From a virus (Duplodnaviria > Caudoviricetes), in the IMG/VR virus record IMGVR_UViG_3300032038_009890, positions 64,001 through 128,000 of that record: a stretch of DNA of 64,000 bases. One strand, given 5' to 3'. Below the pieces are notes generated by a model that was not told where the DNA came from, ran no database searches, and worked only from the letters and a program-made list of their open reading frames with translations. Of the stretch, positions 5,645 through 57,145 are shown piece by piece (within the stretch, counting starts at the first letter, position 1; each line of letters opens with the position of its first letter). Position numbers and translations under genes: made by a program.

Positions 5645-7291
5645 TCTACCTTAACTTTCTCAATCCATCTGTGGAAGCCAAAGCACCATTTATAAGCGTC
5701 ATCATCATTCCATCCACAAGCAACCATTTCCTTATAAAGATTTGTTCTGTACCTATCCCAACTCTCCGTATGGATTCCATCAATCGTAGCCTTGTCTCCT
5801 AACTCAACTACTCTTTTTGCAATCTCTACCAGATGGTCAGTATAAGGTGAAAATCCCCATGCAATATGGTTTGCTACATCCATGACATTAAGTGGACGTT
5901 TGGCCCTGCGAATGTAACTTTTAGCAGAATCCAAATCAAACTGGAGATATTCACGTTCGTGCTTATCTATGTAGGATTCCTCGCTAAGTCGAATAATATT
6001 GCCAAACTGCGCGACAACAATGTACGGATAGTAGGGGACGAGATCACGAGAAGTACCAATATGAAAAGGAAGGACATTACCTCCCTGATAAATCTTATAT
6101 TTATCGATGATCTCATCCATTCCAGTCATAATAATTACATCATAAAAATCACATACAGGTGAATATACGCTAATGTCGGCCGCCCCCTTTCTAGCGAGTC
6201 TTTATGGACGGAAACTTAACTTTAATAACCATCTGAATACTTTCGCAAGAATCTCCATACTCAGTAGAGCTTTTTACATTCACAATAGAAACATTCTCGA
6301 TATTTCTTTGAAGGAAATTCACGAGATGATTCCTCTTGAAATACTCCTTAAGATACTCGTAATTCATTTGTATTTCCTCTCAGTGTAATAGCCAAGGCAG
6401 ACGGTGACAATACTAAAACACAGAAGCAATGCGGAGCTAAGATGTAAGCCCCGCAAACGCAAATATTCTGCGCCAACACCAAAAGAGAAAACTCCAAAGC
6501 TCGTCAGACAGCGTGCAAATATAAATAGTCGCCTGTTCCTCATATTACTTCCTCCACAATATCTGGATTCATAATAAGAATCGTATCACAGTCCCATCCA
6601 TAAAGCTTATAATAAAGGTTCTTAATTCTTACATCAATCGCATCAATACCATCTGCCATCATTCGCTCAAAGTCTAGATAAACATTGGTAAAAGGATCGT
6701 CATCGAGACCATTTGCTCTCATAACAGGGTCTGTAAATATCCAGTCGCGATTCTCATCCATTGTTCTTATCATGTCATCAAGGCTGTAAAGATTTAAAAC
6801 ATTTGCGCTCTCACTGATATCAAACTGGAATGACTCACTCCCCCTAAACAAATCCCATTCTTCGTCGAAACACCAGTCGCGCCAACTTCTTTCGCAACAA
6901 ACGGGCGAGGCCCAAAGACCACATCCTCTTTCTGGCTTATTCCATGAATAGCTTCGATTTTTTACAGGAATAAATTTGTCTTTGTCAAAATGATCAGAAC
7001 CATAATGAATGTATCTCATATAATCCCTCCAAAACACCAAACTAGAGAATATTATATGACTTTCCTATGTGTTTGTCAATAGTTTTCGCCTGTAAACTCT
7101 GTTCCACTATTCTTTGCTTCGTAATCCCTTACAAGTTCATGTATGGCAAAAACATTGATCATCTTGGCTCCACAATGATAGCAATAATAATTATTTGAAT
7201 ATTTTAGTTGATCTCCTTCTAAAATTGCTTTACAGTGGTCACAATAAGCCACCCAATCATCTCTTAATATCCAATCTGCCATCATTGTTCC

Positions 7292-7744
7292 TCAATCAGC
7301 ATCTGTATGGATTCCAACATACGGGCAGAAGATAAAGGTAGTCAAAAAATTCTTATTAAAGAATGTATCATCGTTGATAACATAATTGTACATCCCCGGC
7401 AAAGACTGATGATCAAGATAAGGCTCATTTGGGTTAGAACCTATTTTTAATCCCTTGGTTCCGCAATAGTCCACAATTACTTCTTCCAATATACGAAATT
7501 CATCACTATCATATAAATCTTCGATATTATCAAACATATAATACAAGTAAGATACTAGATAACTTAGTTTTTGAGATTGTTCGTAATAATCATCTACAGT
7601 TTTATCAAACCAACCATATCTAGCAACTGTATAACCGTCCTTATCTGTTTCTAAATCTGGATGCTCCATTTTCTTTCCAAAAGTAAGTGAGTGAACACTA
7701 CTTGAATTAGTTTCAAATACATTATAGCGTACTGTATATTTCAT
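7292..7744 (-). CDS. ETNSS-motif protein (stand-alone copy)
   Basis: MKYTVRYNVFETNSSSVHSL and YLDHQS, shared with 53879-55395. Confidence 0.8.
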   Translation of the reverse strand: MKYTVRYNVFETNSSSVHSLTFGKKMEHPDLETDKDGYTVARYGWFDKTVDDYYEQSQKLSYLVSYLYYMFDNIEDLYDSDEFRILEEVIVDYCGTKGLKIGSNPNEPYLDHQSLPGMYNYVINDDTFFNKNFLTTFIFCPYVGIHTDAD

Positions 7745-8572
7745 TTATCATCCCTCTTTTCGCCCCAAGCACAAAAATGATCTCCGTCCATATATTCCTT
7801 TTCGTCAGGCCACCAAATATCACAATATTGACACTCTCCATTAATAGTCATATGAGAATATTTACATTCTTTACAATGAATTATTTCTATTCCCTGCATG
7901 TCCAATATTTTATCAAGAGTATTTCTATCACACGTTCCAGACGTATATAATAATGCATATACCGATGCACTATCTAAGTATTTCGACATTATTTGCCCTC
8001 CTATATTGAATTTCTCATCTTCTACTTTTAAATTATTTTCTATTGCTGTGCGATTTAACTGTGAAAGAATAGTTGCTCCGATAGATAAATAAGGTTCATC
8101 ATTAATAATTTCACATCCACCATATGCAATTATAACTTTTTTAGTATTAGGATTATTGGCTATCATGTCCAATGCATTATATTTTAGTAAGATTTCTTCT
8201 AATTCACTTATATCCATTGAATAAGAAAGCCTGTACTTGTCATAGGGAATGCTATATTCTTTTAAGTCATATTCTTCATCATCAAAAGAATTATCATCAC
8301 CCAGTGGCTCATACACAACTTCACTGATACCTGCGATGGATTTTAAGTTGTTAATAAAATAATCATCAACAAATTTTGTAAATAAGTTAAACCTCATAAA
8401 ATCTCCTTATTCCATGCAAATGTCTTCCAACCATTCAATCAAATAATCTTCTAGGAGATTAATCGTATTAATTTTATCCCAATGATATTCCTTGTCGAAT
8501 GATTCTTTATAAATATCAATCAACTCAGCTATTTTAAGAATCTGGTCTTCAGTAAAGACTACTTCATCCATA

Positions 8573-48991: not shown

Positions 48992-51211
48992 TCATTCATA
49001 GTTTTCATAAAACTTATCCCGTAAAGTAATAATATCTAGTCCAAGCAGACTTTCTTTATCTTCCGTCTCGTCATACATCTTGCGAAGGAAACCATAAAAC
49101 TTATTATCAAGCTCATTGATCAACTGCCCAGTGCCCTCGATGTATCCGCGCCGAAGAGTAGTGCTTGCAATACTCCTCATGCGTTTCCAAAAATTATAGT
49201 ATTCGGTCTTAACTTTAAACATCAAATTTCCAGAGTCCTCAACGACAAAGCCTTCTACATATTCTCCAAGAAGTTTATATCCCTGCTTCTGTACCGCGCT
49301 ATACCACTCACAGAATTCTTCCCAATTGGTGATATTACATACCTTGCGTTTATGTGTTAATCCAAACTTAACAGCAAGGTCAACCATATCATTATAAGGT
49401 AATTTGTTAAACACAATATCATTCTTTACAATGTCAAGCAAAATGATATTATGATTCAAATATTTAATGATATGCGGGTCCTTCTCAGAATCTTCCACTT
49501 CAAATACGAAAGTACAATCATTATCTTTCAGATACTGAAGAATATTCTTACGAGCATCTTCTGTAGTTACCTCAAAGAAAATCTCCTTAAACCATCCTGC
49601 ATACTCTCCTCCTACCATAGATTTGGTACAGTAACGGAAATCATCTGCATACTCATCATATGAGAGCATTCCAAGGAATCCATTTTCTTTTACATATACA
49701 GATATTGGATACTTAATTACATCCTTTAATTCAGCAAACGTAGGGCAAATAGTACCATCTAAATAGGACATTTTCAAATATCCACGTGCACATACTTTGA
49801 TTCTATTTAGATCGATGAATAATCCTCTCGCATGGACTGTTAAATTATTCCAAATACCTTTCTTAAATGCATCACTTGAAAAGTTAAATGAGCTAATATT
49901 ATTCTCAAATTTCTTCTCGTGGATATACTTACTCGCTCTCATGTCAAGAACAAGCTTCGCCAAATCACTGGAGTTAAGCGCATTCTGAAGCTCGAACTCT
50001 TCTTTCTTACGGAATACCGTATTCTTAATCTCAATCGGCTTAAAGCCTTCGTGATCAAGCTCAACTACACGCAAACATCCGCCAAATTCAACCCTACCCT
50101 CCAGATTAAATACATGCGGAGTCACATGAATCTCAGATGCCTGTGTATTCCTGTGTCCGAAAATCTGATAAACTCCTCCAGACTTTTCTTCCCATGCGTT
50201 AGCCACGTCCAGATAATCTTCATATCTCCCAACACCCTTAATCATCTGCTCGGATGCGACTAAAGTCACGTTCTCGGGCATAAAAGAAATACCTCCATGA
50301 CAAACGAAGACTTCTTTATCATGGAATTTATACCAAGCACACTGAACAAGCTTATAATACAATCTGCTCAAATCTTTCTTATCAAAGTTGGCACTGTTCA
50401 GCTGATTCTTAGTCACCCATTCAAATTCACGGGACTTTGCAGGAATGTCATGTGCATAATTGTATATTGACACCTCATGGTTACCTGTTAGTAGTAATAC
50501 ATTTTTCTTATCTTTAATTTCAAGAAGATACTTAAGTACCTCAACATTCTCAACACCACGATCAAGATAGTCACCTAAAAAGATATAAAACACGTCATCT
50601 TCTAATTGACCGTGAAGATACTTCTGCAATACCGTATAACATCCATGCACATCTCCAATATGCACAATTTTCCGATAGTTAGACAGATCAATAGGTTTAA
50701 GCCAAATCTGTTCAATGTCTTCCCCTGTGACATTGCACGGGTCTTTAGGTTTAATCACAGTAATACCAGACGGCACTTTCTGCGTCTCAAACCGCGCATA
50801 CATTTTGTCATCTACGTCATCGGGAACCCTTTTAAGTTCCTCCCTCTGCGCATTCCGTGCTTTACATACATCAATCGGAATGCCAGTTAAATCAAGCAAA
50901 TAAATCCTATACCTATATTTAGACGCAAGATTCTTATACTTATTCATCTCTTCTGATTTAGAATTCGTTGCATCAATTACAGTAAACTCCCCTGCTTGCA
51001 TACGAATCTCTAAAAGCTTAAAGAGCATATCCCAGACCACTTTTTCATGACTAAAGCCAATCTGTACGGAGCCATTTGTGGTCTGTTGAGGAGACTGGCA
51101 CAGCATACGTATTTCATCTGCGCACAATCGATAATTTTCTAGTCCAAGCTTCCTGATAATGGTACTTTTCCCCGCTCCAGGAGCGCCTCTAAACAATAAT
51201 AATACTCTCAA
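48992..51211 (-). CDS. Polynucleotide kinase-phosphoesterase-RNA ligase fusion (Pnkp/Rnl1-like)
   Basis: GAPGAGKS kinase; GDVHG/GDYLDRG/GNHE phosphoesterase; KENG, EGFV, FKVKT ligase motifs. Start inferred at TTG overlapping the upstream stop. Confidence 0.88.
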   Translation of the reverse strand: MRVLLLFRGAPGAGKSTIIRKLGLENYRLCADEIRMLCQSPQQTTNGSVQIGFSHEKVVWDMLFKLLEIRMQAGEFTVIDATNSKSEEMNKYKNLASKYRYRIYLLDLTGIPIDVCKARNAQREELKRVPDDVDDKMYARFETQKVPSGITVIKPKDPCNVTGEDIEQIWLKPIDLSNYRKIVHIGDVHGCYTVLQKYLHGQLEDDVFYIFLGDYLDRGVENVEVLKYLLEIKDKKNVLLLTGNHEVSIYNYAHDIPAKSREFEWVTKNQLNSANFDKKDLSRLYYKLVQCAWYKFHDKEVFVCHGGISFMPENVTLVASEQMIKGVGRYEDYLDVANAWEEKSGGVYQIFGHRNTQASEIHVTPHVFNLEGRVEFGGCLRVVELDHEGFKPIEIKNTVFRKKEEFELQNALNSSDLAKLVLDMRASKYIHEKKFENNISSFNFSSDAFKKGIWNNLTVHARGLFIDLNRIKVCARGYLKMSYLDGTICPTFAELKDVIKYPISVYVKENGFLGMLSYDEYADDFRYCTKSMVGGEYAGWFKEIFFEVTTEDARKNILQYLKDNDCTFVFEVEDSEKDPHIIKYLNHNIILLDIVKNDIVFNKLPYNDMVDLAVKFGLTHKRKVCNITNWEEFCEWYSAVQKQGYKLLGEYVEGFVVEDSGNLMFKVKTEYYNFWKRMRSIASTTLRRGYIEGTGQLINELDNKFYGFLRKMYDETEDKESLLGLDIITLRDKFYENYE

Positions 51212-51561
51212 AAAGCACTGCCTTCCCACCCGCATTCAAAGCATTTATAAATATGCTGTGGCGGATTTGTCATTAGTAATTGAAATTCATTACGATATAT
51301 GCGATTTTTACATATAGGACATTCAATCTTTGTATACATCCATTCCACTGGATTATTGATTGTATCATTCCTAAACTGAATATACTTATCCCACTCTATC
51401 ACCATCACCTCCCTTTAGTTCATTTATCAAGATATTAGACAATAAAGAGCATAATTTTCTTTCTGTTTTTGATGAATCAACACGCACAGCCATAGCAAAC
51501 AGGGTTTCATATACTCGCATAGTTGTTTTAAATTCGTCACTACTCATTTGTTTCTCCAACT

Positions 51562-51600: not shown

Positions 51601-52299
51601 CTTCCACTATTAAATTTTTTCTTTTACTACGATATCACCTGTGACCAGATCGATTTTACCTATGGTCATTCGATATGGTTTAGAATCCCCGAATGGACAA
51701 TCGACATTGCGATGTGTTAAGACATCACAAACATAAAAATATTTATATTCGCCTGTAACTTTAATCGGGATAGCCACTTGGCCCCAGATATGTGGGTCAT
51801 GAGTATTTAAAAACAGTGCCCAGTATTCCATCCCGACTTGCAATTGCAGTATCAATGGTAATTATGATTCAGCAGAATTAAACCGACAATACTCAGAACC
51901 ACTAACAGCGCCCCAACATCTCTCATATCTGCCCCTCTCTAGCATTATCCTGCATATCCCCGTGGCCCACAGTAGGGAATATCCAGTTTCCAACCATTTC
52001 TATGATTTGGCGTAGAGGTTTTTCTTACAGTAGCGCCAGTTCTAATCAGATTTGATAGTTTTCGCCTATCATCCCGGAGACTGTCGATGGTTTTGGCAAG
52101 CTCACCAATCTGCATGGACTGAAGATAGATTGTCCTTTCATACTCGTCTCGAACTCTGCTAAGGTATGAGATAAAGAATAAAGTCACCCCCAAGGCAGTT
52201 AAAAGGCCGCTAGTCAAACCCAATAAAAACGCTACCTTTGTGAAATCAGACATTTTGTTCCCTCCATGTGTGTTCCGTTAGTGTTCGCTTGTAAATAAT

Positions 52300-52328
52300 A
52301 TTATATGGATTTAGCCCCTACTTGTCAA
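52300..52328 (-). promoter_or_regulatory. SigmaA consensus promoter
   Basis: TTGACA-17 nt-TATAAT. Confidence 0.85.
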
Positions 52329-52972
52329 GCCCTAAATAATTTCCTTTTTAGTTATTAAATTCCATTTTGACGCGGCATTTATCATACTACCGTCTTTGGT
52401 TTTCATACCGCATCTGTGCAAGACCACCTTATTTATATCTGTCTAAGTTAATTGGAGGCGTGACAACCATTTGCAATCGGGGCCTAGTTTTAATACGATT
52501 CAGTATTATACCTTCTTAAAACTAGTGATCTGGTCAATGATGTCCTGATACGTATTCTTAACAATATATTCTTTGCCATTATTCATAACTACAGAACATC
52601 CAGTGTTAGTTCCAACGATTGCAGAAATATCAACGAACTTCAGTGCAATCTGCTTCTGCGAATTACCAGTCAATTCCAAGAAGATCATATTGTGCTCCTT
52701 TATGCAAAGTTATATGTGCAGGCGATGTTTCTATGATCGAGATCCCATTTATTAATTGTCATTCGATACGGAAGAGATTTACTATACATACTACCCTTTA
52801 CGGTATGTGGCAATACCTCGCATACAAAAAATTGCGGGAATTCTTTGAGAATCCTCACAGGTACAAACTCATTAGATATATGAGATGCGTTTTTAAATCT
52901 TGCCATAATCTCCGACCCAACAAAAATCTCGTCGGAAGACAAGCACTGTAACATATGATTAACCACCTCCAG

Positions 52973-53878
52973 TTACATATTCCTGATCACTCTGAGCATA
53001 TCCACGACGTTATCCATCAGAGGCATCATCTCATCCTTGGAGACCAGACTGCTCTTACCGAAAGTCTGACTCACCATATCAATATAAAACGTACAGGTTC
53101 CATCATCCCCGGCATACAGATGTTCCCATTCTTCTTCGGACACAATGCTCTTCACATCTAACTGCTCCAAGGCAAGATTATCAAAACAAACCACCTTAAA
53201 CCAGTCTTCGTTCATGACATCCATCAGATTATCTTTGAGTATACGCCTGTTGACAGATACTTCGGCGCGATGCTCTTCTAGGTAATCATGCCCGCGCCCC
53301 TTATCTTTATAACCTAAGATGAGAAGTTTCAGGCCATGGCCTTTCATTACATTAATTTCATCCATGGTAACACAACCGCTGATCACATGGATAACAGCAG
53401 TAGGATATTTCTTAACCTTCTCAATAAATTCTTCCGTCGGTTTCCGCAGGGAGATACCAAGGCCAGTAATCAAGTCTCTGTACATAAGATCGGCAATTAC
53501 ATCTTCCTTGCGCTCGAAGTGAATCTGATTTACTGTCATATTGACGATAACATTCTTTTTCTTGAGCCTCTCCAGAAAAGGAATTAGCTGAGCATGGTTA
53601 ACGGAATTGCCATTGATCGCAATCTCCGTATACGGATGTAAGCTATCGATAAACTTCGCGCCCAATAAATCCCCTTCGGGACCATCAGGAGTAGCTCCCT
53701 CATAGCAATATTGACAACCACCGTCACAACGCCTACCAATTGAGATATCAATACTCTCTGGAAATTCAGGCAAATACTCATCATCTTCGGTGCGGCGAAT
53801 CTTGGTTCCACTAGCCTTGTCAATTAAGACGGTGTAATTGCCGTTCTTATATACATGAAACACTGCTATTACCTCCAA
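52973..53878 (-). CDS. Radical SAM protein
   Basis: CDGGCQYC (CxxxCxxC), YKNGNY N-terminus, ANMTVN-like VNMTVNQ, FDNLALEQL. Confidence 0.88.
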   Translation of the reverse strand: MEVIAVFHVYKNGNYTVLIDKASGTKIRRTEDDEYLPEFPESIDISIGRRCDGGCQYCYEGATPDGPEGDLLGAKFIDSLHPYTEIAINGNSVNHAQLIPFLERLKKKNVIVNMTVNQIHFERKEDVIADLMYRDLITGLGISLRKPTEEFIEKVKKYPTAVIHVISGCVTMDEINVMKGHGLKLLILGYKDKGRGHDYLEEHRAEVSVNRRILKDNLMDVMNEDWFKVVCFDNLALEQLDVKSIVSEEEWEHLYAGDDGTCTFYIDMVSQTFGKSSLVSKDEMMPLMDNVVDMLRVIRNM

Positions 53879-54268
53879 TCAATAATCATAATATGATCTG
53901 GTGATACTGTAATTTTTACTCGGTTCATTGATATCAATGCCATCATCATATTTACAACGATCATATTTAAAAAAGCCAAAACATTCAAGATCGTCCAATA
54001 TATTATCTTCTGGGACATCATTTGCATTCTTAATATAAGTATACCTCTTATCGTTCTTTTTTAAGAAACTGAATGCCTCCTCTAAGGTGTATAATCTTCC
54101 AGAACTGATCTTGTTGTTATTTTCATCCGTAGCATAATCGTCGCCACCGAGATACAGGTAATGATCACCTTTCATCCATCTATCGAACTCAGTAACACTT
54201 AGTGTTGCATAGGCATGATTCATAGATGAATTGGTTTCAAATACAAAAGGTCTAACGGTAAACTTCAT
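53879..54268 (-). CDS. ETNSS-motif protein
   Basis: MKFTVRPFVFETNSSMNHA. Confidence 0.8.
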   Translation of the reverse strand: MKFTVRPFVFETNSSMNHAYATLSVTEFDRWMKGDHYLYLGGDDYATDENNNKISSGRLYTLEEAFSFLKKNDKRYTYIKNANDVPEDNILDDLECFGFFKYDRCKYDDGIDINEPSKNYSITRSYYDY

Positions 54269-54283
54269 CTAATTTCTCCTTTC

Positions 54284-54685
54284 TTATCCACTATAGCCAA
54301 ACCTACAAAGGATAGCAATCTCATCACCAGATTCTGAAGTATAAAAGTTTGTTTCAGAACCTTGCATTCCTTCATCAAAGAAATCATCATCAAATTCAAT
54401 TCCAGACCAAACTGCATAGCGAACATAACCATGTTCAAAGAAATACACGTTCTCGCTACTATACTCTGTGATTTTTTCCTCAATCTCTTCTACAGTTACA
54501 TTCCATTTCTTAGCAATCATATTTACCAATTCTTCTCTGGTATACATCTTATAATCCTTACTAGACATATCCAGATAAAGATCGCCCTCTTTCCAAGCAT
54601 TATATATCCTCATAGGAATAATACTAATTGAATGGACGGAGCTAGAATTTGTTTCATGTACGCCAAACCTGATATACTCTTTCAC
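54284..54685 (-). CDS. ETNSS-motif protein
   Basis: MKEYIRFGVHETNSSSVHS. Confidence 0.8.
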   Translation of the reverse strand: MKEYIRFGVHETNSSSVHSISIIPMRIYNAWKEGDLYLDMSSKDYKMYTREELVNMIAKKWNVTVEEIEEKITEYSSENVYFFEHGYVRYAVWSGIEFDDDFFDEGMQGSETNFYTSESGDEIAILCRFGYSG

Positions 54686-55395
54686 TTATATATCTCCTTA
54701 ATGAATTTTCTATCTATGATTCCACACTCAATGTACTTATCAAGATAATAATACTCATCCCCATCTTGAATAATAATATATTTTTTATTTGTCAAAAACT
54801 CTTTTAGTGTTACTTTCTTTTCCTTTAGAAATCTCTGCAAAAGTCCTCTACTTTGATGATCAACACACCCAATGTCTGGAACGTCATTTACAAATGCTTC
54901 ATCCATCACGGCATTTATTTCTTCGCCTTGCTCATTAGTATATGTATACTGGCATATATCATCAGAATAGCCCGCATAATGTAGCTTATCATGTGGTATT
55001 GGATTTCCATTAATGTCACGATAGATTTCAAGCTCTTTCTTTGCTATTCTAAATTCTTTGACTTCTGGTATAATCTCAGAAACGATTCTCAAAAGTCTCT
55101 TATATGTACTTTCAAACCTCGCTTCATCACCATAAAAGTCACCTAAGTATGAGCAGATAGCATAAGATAATTTGTCCTCAAACGTATATAATATTTTAAA
55201 AGGCCACCGTCCAAAGCCTTCTTCTATACTATCATAAATAATAAGTTTTCCGTCTTTATCTACCCAAACACAATCATCTACGTCCCAATCATTTACTACA
55301 ATTGCCATATGTTCATCATTATTTGTAATACATATAGCATGCATAGAAGAGCTATTTGTTTCATGACAATTTCTTCTGATTGTATATTTAGCCAT
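54682..55395 (-). CDS. ETNSS-motif protein
   Basis: MAKYTIRRNCHETNSSSMHA and CVDHQS. Confidence 0.8.
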   Translation of the reverse strand: MAKYTIRRNCHETNSSSMHAICITNNDEHMAIVVNDWDVDDCVWVDKDGKLIIYDSIEEGFGRWPFKILYTFEDKLSYAICSYLGDFYGDEARFESTYKRLLRIVSEIIPEVKEFRIAKKELEIYRDINGNPIPHDKLHYAGYSDDICQYTYTNEQGEEINAVMDEAFVNDVPDIGCVDHQSRGLLQRFLKEKKVTLKEFLTNKKYIIIQDGDEYYYLDKYIECGIIDRKFIKEIYK

Positions 55396-55403
55396 GGTAC
55401 TCC

Positions 55404-56294
55404 TTAATGTGCATATACATCTGCGTTGTGCAGAATCATAACGTCATCATAGAACTCAGTTCCGTATCTCTTAATAAATTTTCTTTCAGCCTTTTCATCA
55501 CCATTCCAGAAATATGGGTCCATATGATGGCACACAAGATTACTTACATATAGCGTATCAGCGTTATACTTTTCGCAAGCAAAGAATAATGTCTCATAGC
55601 CGCCCACATTATGATGATAATAGTAATGCACTCTTAAATCATCATCATAGCTCTTTGTATACGGTTTTCCGCAGTCATGTAATAATGATGCAACTGCTAC
55701 AGATATATCAGTATCCTTTTCACCCACATGTAGATAATGATTGTACACGTGATGAAACGTCATTGACAGATGCCTACCAAGCGAAGCAGTGTGATGCTTA
55801 GACTCCTGATTATATTGATCTAAAAAGAATGTCAGATCTGTGGGGTCTCCATTGGAGGTCATCCACTCGGACCTGTCGTAATGTATCCAAATCTCATCCC
55901 ACCCCTCCCAATAGCCGGGGGTATACCAAGATTCATAAGCCTCTTTGACGTGTTTCATTTCTCCAGAAAAGTTTTTACAGCAAATATTATAAGGTGTTGC
56001 AATGATAATGCAGATTTTATATACATCATTAAAACTGCCGACAACATTGTTAATTAGATACCTACGGCTCTTTTCTTTTACATTTGAAGCATCGACAACA
56101 CAATCACTGCCGCATGATATTATTGCCTTTATCTTATCATAATATTTATTGTATACTACTGTTTCGTCGGTGATTCCCTGATCATTTAATTTTTTCCTTA
56201 TATCACCAATTGATACAACCTCAGCCCCAATAGTACCTGCATAGGCACTTTTCCCAGAACCCGGAAGACCCACCATAGCATATAATTTAGGCAT
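55404..56294 (-). CDS. P-loop kinase (AAA_33) fused to HD phosphohydrolase
   Basis: MVGLPGSGKS, VVDASN; HH...H...LLHDCGK...HH...HM...AD. Confidence 0.85.
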   Translation of the reverse strand: MPKLYAMVGLPGSGKSAYAGTIGAEVVSIGDIRKKLNDQGITDETVVYNKYYDKIKAIISCGSDCVVDASNVKEKSRRYLINNVVGSFNDVYKICIIIATPYNICCKNFSGEMKHVKEAYESWYTPGYWEGWDEIWIHYDRSEWMTSNGDPTDLTFFLDQYNQESKHHTASLGRHLSMTFHHVYNHYLHVGEKDTDISVAVASLLHDCGKPYTKSYDDDLRVHYYYHHNVGGYETLFFACEKYNADTLYVSNLVCHHMDPYFWNGDEKAERKFIKRYGTEFYDDVMILHNADVYAH

Positions 56295-56560: not shown

Positions 56561-56833
56561 CTATTCTAGTCCAAGATCACTGGCAAACATAAGAGTGCCG
56601 TCTGCCTTGTAACAAGGTGTGATACCAAACCGCTCGGATGTATCATATAATATGTAGACAACTTTTGTTTTGCTGTCAACGGCATACATAAAACCTGCTG
56701 TAGTATTTTCACTATATATTTTAATTTTAGGTCTAATTGCGATTCCTACATATTCTTTGCCGAGGCTGCTATAATCACATCCAACTAAACAGCACAACAT
56801 TAATGCTAACACCAGAAACAAAAATCTTTTCAT
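56561..56833 (-). CDS. Lipoprotein, paralog of 56846..57145
   Basis: LVGC lipobox; TKVVYILY...KADGT...ASDLGLE. Confidence 0.75.
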   Translation of the reverse strand: MKRFLFLVLALMLCCLVGCDYSSLGKEYVGIAIRPKIKIYSENTTAGFMYAVDSKTKVVYILYDTSERFGITPCYKADGTLMFASDLGLE

Positions 56834-56845
56834 CTCCGCCCTCCC

Positions 56846-57145
56846 TTATTCTAGGCCAAGATCGCTTGCAAGCATCGGGGTTCCGTCTGCTTTTAAACAA
56901 GGGCATAGTGAACCAACTCTATTTGCGTTGTACAAGATATATACTACTTTTGTTTCTGTATCTATAACGTAGCAAAAACTTGTATACTCAACCACATGAT
57001 TTGCGTAGATAGCTAGATTCGGCATAGGTATCTTTTTATTGTTATATAAATAATATCCTCTCTCTTCGGGGTTAGAACATCCTGCTAAGTAACACAGCAT
57101 CAAGGCTAATGTTAGAAATAAAAACTTTCTCATCTTTATATTCAT
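56846..57145 (-). CDS. Lipoprotein, tandem paralog
   Basis: LAGC lipobox; same C-terminus. Confidence 0.75.
   Translation of the reverse strand: MNIKMRKFLFLTLALMLCYLAGCSNPEERGYYLYNNKKIPMPNLAIYANHVVEYTSFCYVIDTETKVVYILYNANRVGSLCPCLKADGTPMLASDLGLE

Follow-up and report, generated by a model that had tools for sequence, protein, structure and literature searches.

A radical-SAM enzyme linked to a portable N-terminal tag on dissimilar proteins: a widespread and most likely undescribed phage system

In the anSME/AtsB system one radical S-adenosylmethionine (SAM) enzyme serves several whole, folded sulfatases that carry a short serine-containing motif near the N-terminus, and the genes of enzyme and clients are often adjacent. 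Maturases of ribosomally synthesized and post-translationally modified peptides (RiPPs), such as SuiB, SkfB, WgkB and PqqE, are found beside multiple substrates with a common recognition sequence, and the glycyl-radical activases PflA and NrdG, which are small and have a single cluster, target a loop within a whole protein by radical-SAM chemistry. In the antiphage system HXS, the SHRSS motif of the whole protein HxsA gains 8 Da in a manner dependent on the radical-SAM enzymes HxsB and HxsC (PMC13128918). Here we analyse a locus that recalls each of these systems in part, found in a 64,000-nucleotide (nt) window (positions 64,001 to 128,000 of IMG/VR record IMGVR_UViG_3300032038_009890) from the 217-kb genome of a large gut phage. 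It encodes a radical-SAM enzyme and four proteins with a common N-terminal tag, named here by their lengths p237, p133, p129 and p150 (Table 1). The pair, which recurs in thousands of phages and is often fused, is most likely an undescribed and very widespread phage enzyme-plus-tag system, which resembles the known radical-SAM protein maturases and is a member of none of those families. Literature searches on the motif and on radical-SAM counter-defence in phages found no paper describing the motif or the tag-enzyme pair.

The first-pass annotation of the window had described three tandem genes with a short common motif, adjoining a radical-SAM gene of the CxxxCxxC type, and a fourth such gene at 7292; these open reading frames (ORFs) and their coordinates were confirmed, as was the DHQS sequence seen in two of the products (VDHQS in p237, LDHQS in p150). 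The back-translated motif has four matches in the window, against 0.02 expected from shuffled sequences, and in a six-frame scan of the whole genome the N-terminal pattern M-x4-R-x3-[F/H]-E-T-N-S-S-x2-H occurs on these four ORFs only. The motif as first proposed, R-x3-(F/H)ETNSS-x2-H, is real but too short. The consensus over 559 unique copies is [M]K-x-Q-I-R(97%)-x-x-V-F(93%)-E(97%)-T(95%)-N-S-S-S(97%)-x-H(98%)-[SA]-[IL]-x-[IV], in which the conservation of N-S-S is imposed by the search pattern. This tag of about 20 residues stands ahead of an acidic body domain. Internal copies with no methionine nearby occur in three homologues (P0209, P0215 and, as a second copy, P0212), and a free N-terminus is therefore not required.

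After removal of the tag, the bodies were clustered and the resulting families compared by hhalign, which separated at least three classes with no detectable mutual similarity. Four families of what we call the DH type are mutually homologous (hhalign 95-99%; one pair reaches 35% and is bridged by the remaining two families) and have in common the segments GEFGW/FGR and K..YL, an invariant D-H (or D), and an acidic motif, GNDN, DNDN or DGDE, in a C-terminal strand. The short type, of about 100-140 amino acids (aa) and ending in FG.YGY.G, scores below 7% against the DH type, and the third class, a 221-aa Lak family, about 1% against the others. The tag is thus portable between body folds without detectable similarity. 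In the window, p150 falls into DH-type family 1 (99.6%) and p237 is likewise of the DH type, while p133, whose C-terminus CRFGYSG fits the short-type ending, and p129 fall into the short type (96% and 91%). The description of these proteins as otherwise divergent accordingly stands between the two classes and fails within them, where p237 and p150 on the one hand and p133 and p129 on the other are homologous. Client bodies are nearly all acidic, with a median isoelectric point (pI) of 4.4 and 98% of values below 5.5. Invariant positions comprise E12, N14, S15-17, H19, R63, K75, G212, D213 and E214 in the p237 family alignment (A2), and R6, E11, N13, S14-16, H18, D111 and H112 in that of p150 (A3).

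Enzyme and tag are near-obligately linked, co-oriented, usually translationally coupled and frequently fused. When IMG/VR was searched with an alignment of the enzyme, 77 of 80 loci had one to five tagged ORFs; two of the three exceptions are fragments that end just upstream of the enzyme, and the third has a tagged ORF elsewhere on the contig. Starting from the tag, the enzyme was found within 10 kb at 69 of 80 viral loci, which hold up to six tagged ORFs each. Among five examined tag loci with no enzyme nearby, three have it elsewhere on the contig, and the contigs of the other two are 38% and 74% complete. The motif pattern occurs 176 times in 185,579 prokaryotic species assemblies, mostly in metagenome-assembled genomes from gut and rumen, and the enzyme is present at 37 of the 42 tag loci there that are well flanked. 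The linkage check proposed in the first-pass annotation therefore came out strongly positive in both directions, and recurrent gene fusions reinforce it.

Dereplication of the enzyme at 70% identity gave 65 groups, in 60 of which a tagged ORF lies no more than five genes away; the runner-up neighbour, a kinase-HD protein, reaches 7 of 65. All 127 tagged ORFs examined in 62 dereplicated groups are on the strand of the enzyme, with a median gap of 18.5 nt. By position, 48 groups have their tagged ORFs exclusively upstream of the enzyme, 10 exclusively downstream, and two have them in both places. The pair is conserved in phages that are very distant from one another. Four tagged ORFs come after the enzyme gene in Lak-B7; the tagged gp130 of Microcystis phage Ma-LMM01 lies two genes before the enzyme gp128; in Rhodothermus phage RM378, p107 and then the tagged p106 come after the enzyme p108; and Thermus phage phiYS40 has the tagged YS40_162 immediately ahead of the enzyme YS40_161. 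The commonest locus has a lone DH-type client (20 groups), followed by one DH-type plus one short-type client (16 groups), and whole-genome scans of Ma-LMM01 and RM378 found exactly one tagged protein in each, of the DH type. Since a lone DH-type client is the commonest composition, and the DH type is the sole client in these two phages and the only recognised body type seen in fusions with the enzyme, it is the core client, to which the short type and the other bodies are add-ons.

Natural fusions join the same two components in one polypeptide. Salmonella phage Arash gp146c, a 476-aa protein annotated as 'methyltransferase', consists of a tagged DH-type domain (FATNSSSSH, YIDHES and GGNDN in this order) and this radical-SAM enzyme. 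Among 58 homologues of 458-2000 aa, 37 contain CxxxCxxC, and almost every one of the 37 can be aligned to the window enzyme. At least 37 natural proteins, gp146c among them, thus join a tagged domain to this enzyme. The tag comes first in 35 of the 37 and the order is reversed in two; the fused body is of the DH type in 27 and unassigned in 10, and in no case of the short type.

The enzyme itself is small. Its CxxxCxxC motif is CDGGCQYC (residues 51-58), and C51, C55 and C58 are conserved at 98-100% in 58 homologues, in which no further alignment column reaches 30% cysteine. Because these three are the only conserved cysteines, the enzyme has no SPASM or twitch domain, and the likeness to RiPP or serine-modifying maturases suggested in the first-pass annotation finds no support at the level of the enzyme, where the auxiliary clusters of anSME and of RiPP maturases are absent. 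The window enzyme scores below the Pfam gathering cut-off for Radical_SAM (PF04055; E 0.012, 16.2 bits against 29.5), many of its fused homologues carry PF04055, and it matches the 'Fe-S oxidoreductase' family phrog_16999 (E 6.7e-31). Ahead of the core is a conserved N-terminal segment, Y-x-N-G-N-Y ... D-G-T-K-I-R, which the annotated forms of the RM378 and phiYS40 enzymes lack. A profile search of the PDB gave weak, generic matches over the first ~90 residues of the core (Tes 5.6e-4, SuiB 1.2e-3), and a tally of NCBIfam matches over the 58 members returned, also weakly, the tungsten-cofactor maturase, WgkB, MoaA, ScmE, NrdG2 and HxsC. These weak affinities are mostly to peptide or protein maturases (WgkB, ScmE, HxsC, SuiB, SkfB).

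The enzyme is 47-48% identical to that of the Prevotella Lak megaphages. When phage records were searched with the window sequences, at the nucleotide and at the protein level, nothing close was found, and a scan of viral contigs with the window enzyme as a single sequence gave no match, so that alignments were required. Some relatives host a LAGLIDADG intein: in a protein atlas, one 690-aa viral cluster is this enzyme split by a LAGLIDADG intein-type domain (template modelling (TM) score 0.93 over the query). The 'Fe-S oxidoreductases' of Klebsiella, Enterobacter and Cronobacter phages were considered as the same enzyme and rejected, the one examined, from Klebsiella phage Roth90, being different. 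That protein (L085, 3297-4499), a radical-SAM enzyme of 400 aa, has a SPASM-like C-terminus rich in cysteine and lacks tagged neighbours; it should not be pooled with this clade.

The tagged proteins have no match in Pfam (and no consistent one over 64 members), no family match in NCBIfam or PADLOC, and none in a sequence-profile search of the PDB; in PHROGs they match only the function-less phrog_28997 (E 4.8e-4). The DH-type profile recovers 7,639 cluster representatives at E <=1e-3 and 3,321 at <=1e-10 among 1.84 billion, the clusters being drawn at 50% identity, and the names in ten clusters examined are solely 'hypothetical protein'. AlphaFold2 (AF2) models built with the family alignments are confident for the bodies and poor for the tag. 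For p237 the mean predicted local distance difference test score (pLDDT) is 85 and the predicted TM score (pTM) 0.77, with averages of 62 and 69 over the first two 10-residue blocks, which hold the tag; for p150 they are 79.5 and 0.78, with residues 1-13 almost all below 50 and the loop after D-H-Q-S likewise. The residues that follow the tag histidine form the first strand of the body. No solved fold was matched by the p237 and p150 models (best Foldseek E against the PDB 0.12; best Z in an exhaustive VIA search 3.2 and 2.5), a weak fold search that leaves a new fold unproven and supports no known one. A search of BFVD returned the family of the query only, including RM378 p106 and a fusion protein, and the protein atlas yielded only uncharacterised viral clusters.

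Two single observations connect tagged domains with anti-defence proteins. A Tad2-like atlas cluster of 261 aa aligns to p150 at a TM score of 0.63, a lead only, and in P0190 an Acb3 domain precedes the tagged domain; either may be a merged gene call instead of a true fusion.

How far the known systems carry over can be judged feature by feature. With anSME and its sulfatases the phage pair has in common one enzyme that would reach several whole clients through a short serine-containing N-terminal motif. anSME, however, has a SPASM domain with two auxiliary clusters where the phage enzyme has three conserved cysteines only; the sulfatase motif (C/S)-x-(P/A)-x-R is not in the tag consensus; the phage clients have no sulfatase or alkaline-phosphatase fold; and no significant sequence match was found. 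The likeness to HXS would lie in radical-SAM maturation of a whole protein at a motif rich in serine and histidine and in a part played in the conflict between phage and host. HXS, a bacterial, periplasmic system, comprises HxsD besides two radical-SAM enzymes, and five tandem H-x-S repeats accompany a peptidoglycan-binding domain in its client (PMC13128918), whereas the phage system has one small enzyme and clients with a single conserved tag histidine and no Pfam domain. Of the 58 enzyme homologues, 28 list the HxsC model among their weak matches, with a best E of 1.1e-7 and at a strength like that of MoaA, NrdG2 and WgkB, and the window enzyme has no HxsB or HxsC match in NCBIfam at E up to 1.

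RiPP maturases provide the weak best matches to the enzyme core, together with the arrangement of one enzyme beside several proteins with a common sequence. They differ from the phage enzyme, which is without SPASM or twitch and for which no family of the RiPP recognition element appears among the Pfam or NCBIfam matches. The first-pass annotation had envisaged several diversified substrate proteins of one enzyme, with the motif as a recognition or modification site like RiPP leaders. Its idea of several proteins recognised by a tag fits a portable tag that sits on dissimilar bodies and is poorly ordered in monomer models, but the clients are not hypervariable: they are conserved orthologous families of folded proteins of 100-290 aa rather than short peptides, with an N-terminal tag that runs on without a break into the first strand of the body. 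The glycyl-radical activases match the phage enzyme in size and in their single cluster, and NrdG2 is among the weak matches of 30 of the 58 homologues. Their motif RVxG[FWY], by contrast, is absent from all client family consensus sequences, and the FG.YGY.G that ends the short type differs from it and does not occur in the core clients of the DH type.

The reading we prefer is that one enzyme recognises the tag and chemically modifies its T-N-S-S-S(-x-H) stretch on whole client proteins by a radical mechanism. That the tag addresses several clients by one enzyme is argued by the near-obligate two-way linkage, the translational coupling, the repeated fusion, and the portability and poor order of the tag. 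That the outcome is a covalent modification is put at a probability of about 0.5, by analogy with anSME and the sulfatases and with HxsB/HxsC and HxsA. The system would then have two components, a single-cluster radical-SAM enzyme and a client set with a common tag. The tag, flexible in the free client, would dock into the enzyme, a 5'-deoxyadenosyl radical would take a hydrogen from the invariant T-N-S-S-S stretch, and the resulting covalent change, which may be serine oxidation, a cross-link to the invariant histidine, or epimerisation, would be needed for client function. That RNA-repair and tRNA genes recur around the pair, and that the bodies are acidic, suggests a role in host takeover or counter-defence. 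The full proposal, a new type of widespread phage post-translational modification in which a minimal single-cluster enzyme modifies a serine-rich tag grafted onto unrelated acidic folds and so matures proteins for host takeover or counter-defence, possibly linked to tRNA or RNA repair, is tentative and falls somewhat short of even odds.

Several observations weigh against modification of the tag. A substrate fused to its own maturase is unusual. Auxiliary clusters, which anSME and almost all radical-SAM enzymes that modify peptides possess, are missing from this one, and the proposed chemistry is for this reason without close precedent. Leader peptides are typically less conserved than the tag, which moreover holds residues of the kind found in catalytic or metal sites (E, N, S, H), and the invariant D-H pair and acidic C-terminal motif of the DH type could make the tag a part of an active site instead of a substrate. 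Its low pLDDT may also stem from shallow alignments, of 22 and 64 sequences.

The main alternative is a non-covalent partnership, in which the enzyme would have the tagged DH-type domain as its accessory or second catalytic subunit and both would act together on a third molecule, for instance an RNA end, a tRNA base or a nucleotide; the tag would serve as a docking strand or complete the active site and stay unchanged, and the other tagged proteins would be alternative adaptors. Fusions in which the DH-type domain precedes the enzyme and the short type never does speak for such a partnership, as do the minimal systems of Ma-LMM01 and RM378, which across the whole genome have one enzyme and one DH-type protein, and the invariant D-H and acidic motifs that DH-type bodies bear of their own. 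A single partner domain, on the other hand, would have no need of the same tag on dissimilar bodies or of up to six tagged ORFs at one locus, and the searches with the two client models revealed neither a nucleic-acid-binding nor a known catalytic fold. Genes for RNA repair (kinase-HD, Thg1, RlaP, CCA-adding enzyme, RNA ligase) are recurrent neighbours, as an RNA target would lead one to expect, but in only about one tenth of the enzyme groups, and the setting is therefore a hint and not a functional assignment. We consider the partnership less likely than modification, yet a serious alternative.

A set of independent small enzymes, with R...FETNSSS.H as the first strand and the catalytic or metal-binding loop of a hydrolase-like family that shares a pathway with the radical-SAM enzyme, seems to us improbable. 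It would suit a near-invariant motif rich in E, T, N, S and H at a fixed distance from the start, a second invariant D-H with an acidic motif, and the very large size of the DH-type family. Yet the motif is common to bodies with no detectable homology and is the least confident part of both AF2 models, no hydrolase fold or family was matched, and near-obligate co-occurrence and fusion with one enzyme clade exceed ordinary pathway linkage. Likenesses of the tag and DH motifs to SGNH/GDSL hydrolases, to Toprim (E...DxD), to the alkaline-phosphatase superfamily (DHGN-like), to the flavodoxin phosphate loop, to the RHGE motif of histidine phosphatases and to 2H phosphoesterases were each considered and rejected, the order and spacing of the motifs being a misfit and the fold searches giving no support.

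Tandem, otherwise diverse proteins with only an N-terminal peptide in common, and h-F-E at the position of a prohead-protease site, could also recall the capsid-targeting or protease-cleavage signal of T4 internal proteins, which is cleaved after the glutamate, with the radical-SAM neighbour incidental. Such a sorting signal is very improbable given the two-way linkage and the fusions, a conservation that peaks after the glutamate, internal tags with no methionine nearby, and the rows available from the Arash virion proteome table, which list Gp143 and Gp149 and not the fusion Gp146 (PMC10585845).

Table 1. Features of the tag-enzyme locus and of the distant tagged gene in the window
Feature	Position	Strand	Description
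Radical-SAM enzyme gene	52973-53878	-	listed ORF 301 aa, CDGGCQYC
Tagged client p129	53879-54268	-	129 aa; tag MKFTVRPFVFETNSSMNH; short-type acidic body; pI 4.76
Tagged client p133	54284-54685	-	133 aa; tag MKEYIRFGVHETNSSSVH; short-type acidic body
Tagged client p237	54682-55395	-	237 aa; tag MAKYTIRRNCHETNSSSMH; DH-type body; FGRWPF, VDHQS and DGDEY motifs
Tagged client p150	7292-7744	-	150 aa; tag MKYTVRYNVFETNSSSVH; DH-type body; LDHQS
Tag-coding segment, first 22 codons	p237 55330-55395; p133 54620-54685; p129 54203-54268; p150 7679-7744	-	
P-loop kinase + HD phosphohydrolase	55404-56294	-	8 nt upstream of p237; AAA_33 1.2e-6, HD 2.5e-5 (Pfam)
Terminator-like hairpin + T run	52928-52943	-	30 nt past the stop of the radical-SAM gene

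On the minus strand of the window the operon runs kinase-HD, p237, p133, p129 and radical-SAM enzyme, and then reaches the terminator-like hairpin, which is its probable end. The starts and stops are tightly spaced: p237 overlaps the start of p133 by 4 nt, and the stop of p129 directly abuts the listed start of the enzyme. Translation of the latter probably begins at a GTG at 53863, which is preceded by GGAGG and yields 296 aa; the atlas entry for the enzyme begins at the same residue. The kinase-HD gene is treated as context, its membership in the system being unproven.

The gene for p150, 46 kb away from the enzyme, is coupled by a 4-nt overlap to an upstream 218-aa protein (7741-8397, minus strand) with a cysteine-rich C-terminal segment, CKECK…GECQYC…, and is followed by a 69-aa zinc-ribbon-like protein at 7076-7285 (minus strand). 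A perfect sigma-70 consensus, TTGACA-17-TATAAT (12/12), lies at 52300-52328 on the minus strand, 3' of the radical-SAM operon and before the gene at 51945-52253. At 56561-56833 and 56846-57145 (minus strand) are two tandem small paralogues, each of which starts with a signal peptide of the lipoprotein type, …LALMLC(C/Y)L(V/A)GC; their products have the C-terminus …ASDLGLE in common and may be phage-encoded lipoproteins.

The RNA-repair surroundings are best seen in a few genomes. In the window, 1.7 kb from the operon, a 747-aa protein (48992-51235, minus strand) with a P-loop kinase, a calcineurin-type phosphoesterase and a T4 Rnl1-type RNA ligase domain matches phrog_8238 (E 7e-200) and, judged by this domain content, is predicted to be an all-in-one RNA repair enzyme like bacterial Pnkp. 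RM378 has an HD-plus-kinase gene (p110) and an RNA ligase beside the tag-enzyme pair, in Arash an RNA ligase is three genes from the fusion gene, and at further loci genes of Thg1-like, RlaP, CCA-adding and cysteine-desulfurase proteins are nearby. The domain order of the window kinase-HD protein is the reverse of that in p110, and P0188, a 490-aa homologue of the kinase-HD protein, is apparently fused to a tagged domain, although it may be a merged gene call. In Ma-LMM01, gp131 (L002:4070-4870), annotated as 'histidyl tRNA synthetase' and with no Pfam match at E <=1e-3, adjoins the tag-enzyme pair, and Thg1-like genes, of the tRNA-His guanylyltransferase family, follow the enzyme at other loci, an odd repeat of annotations related to tRNA-His.

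The DH-type family is thus a large one, with no family match in Pfam, NCBIfam or PADLOC and no match among solved structures, that travels with one equally unannotated radical-SAM clade. The pair is available in the cultured phages Ma-LMM01, RM378, phiYS40 and Arash, in the last as a single fused polypeptide. If the enzyme does modify the tag, this would add to radical-SAM protein chemistry a new branch that works without auxiliary clusters. The tag would then provide a general rule by which the clients of the enzyme can be spotted in phage genomes, and the system would probably represent a new layer of phage-host conflict.

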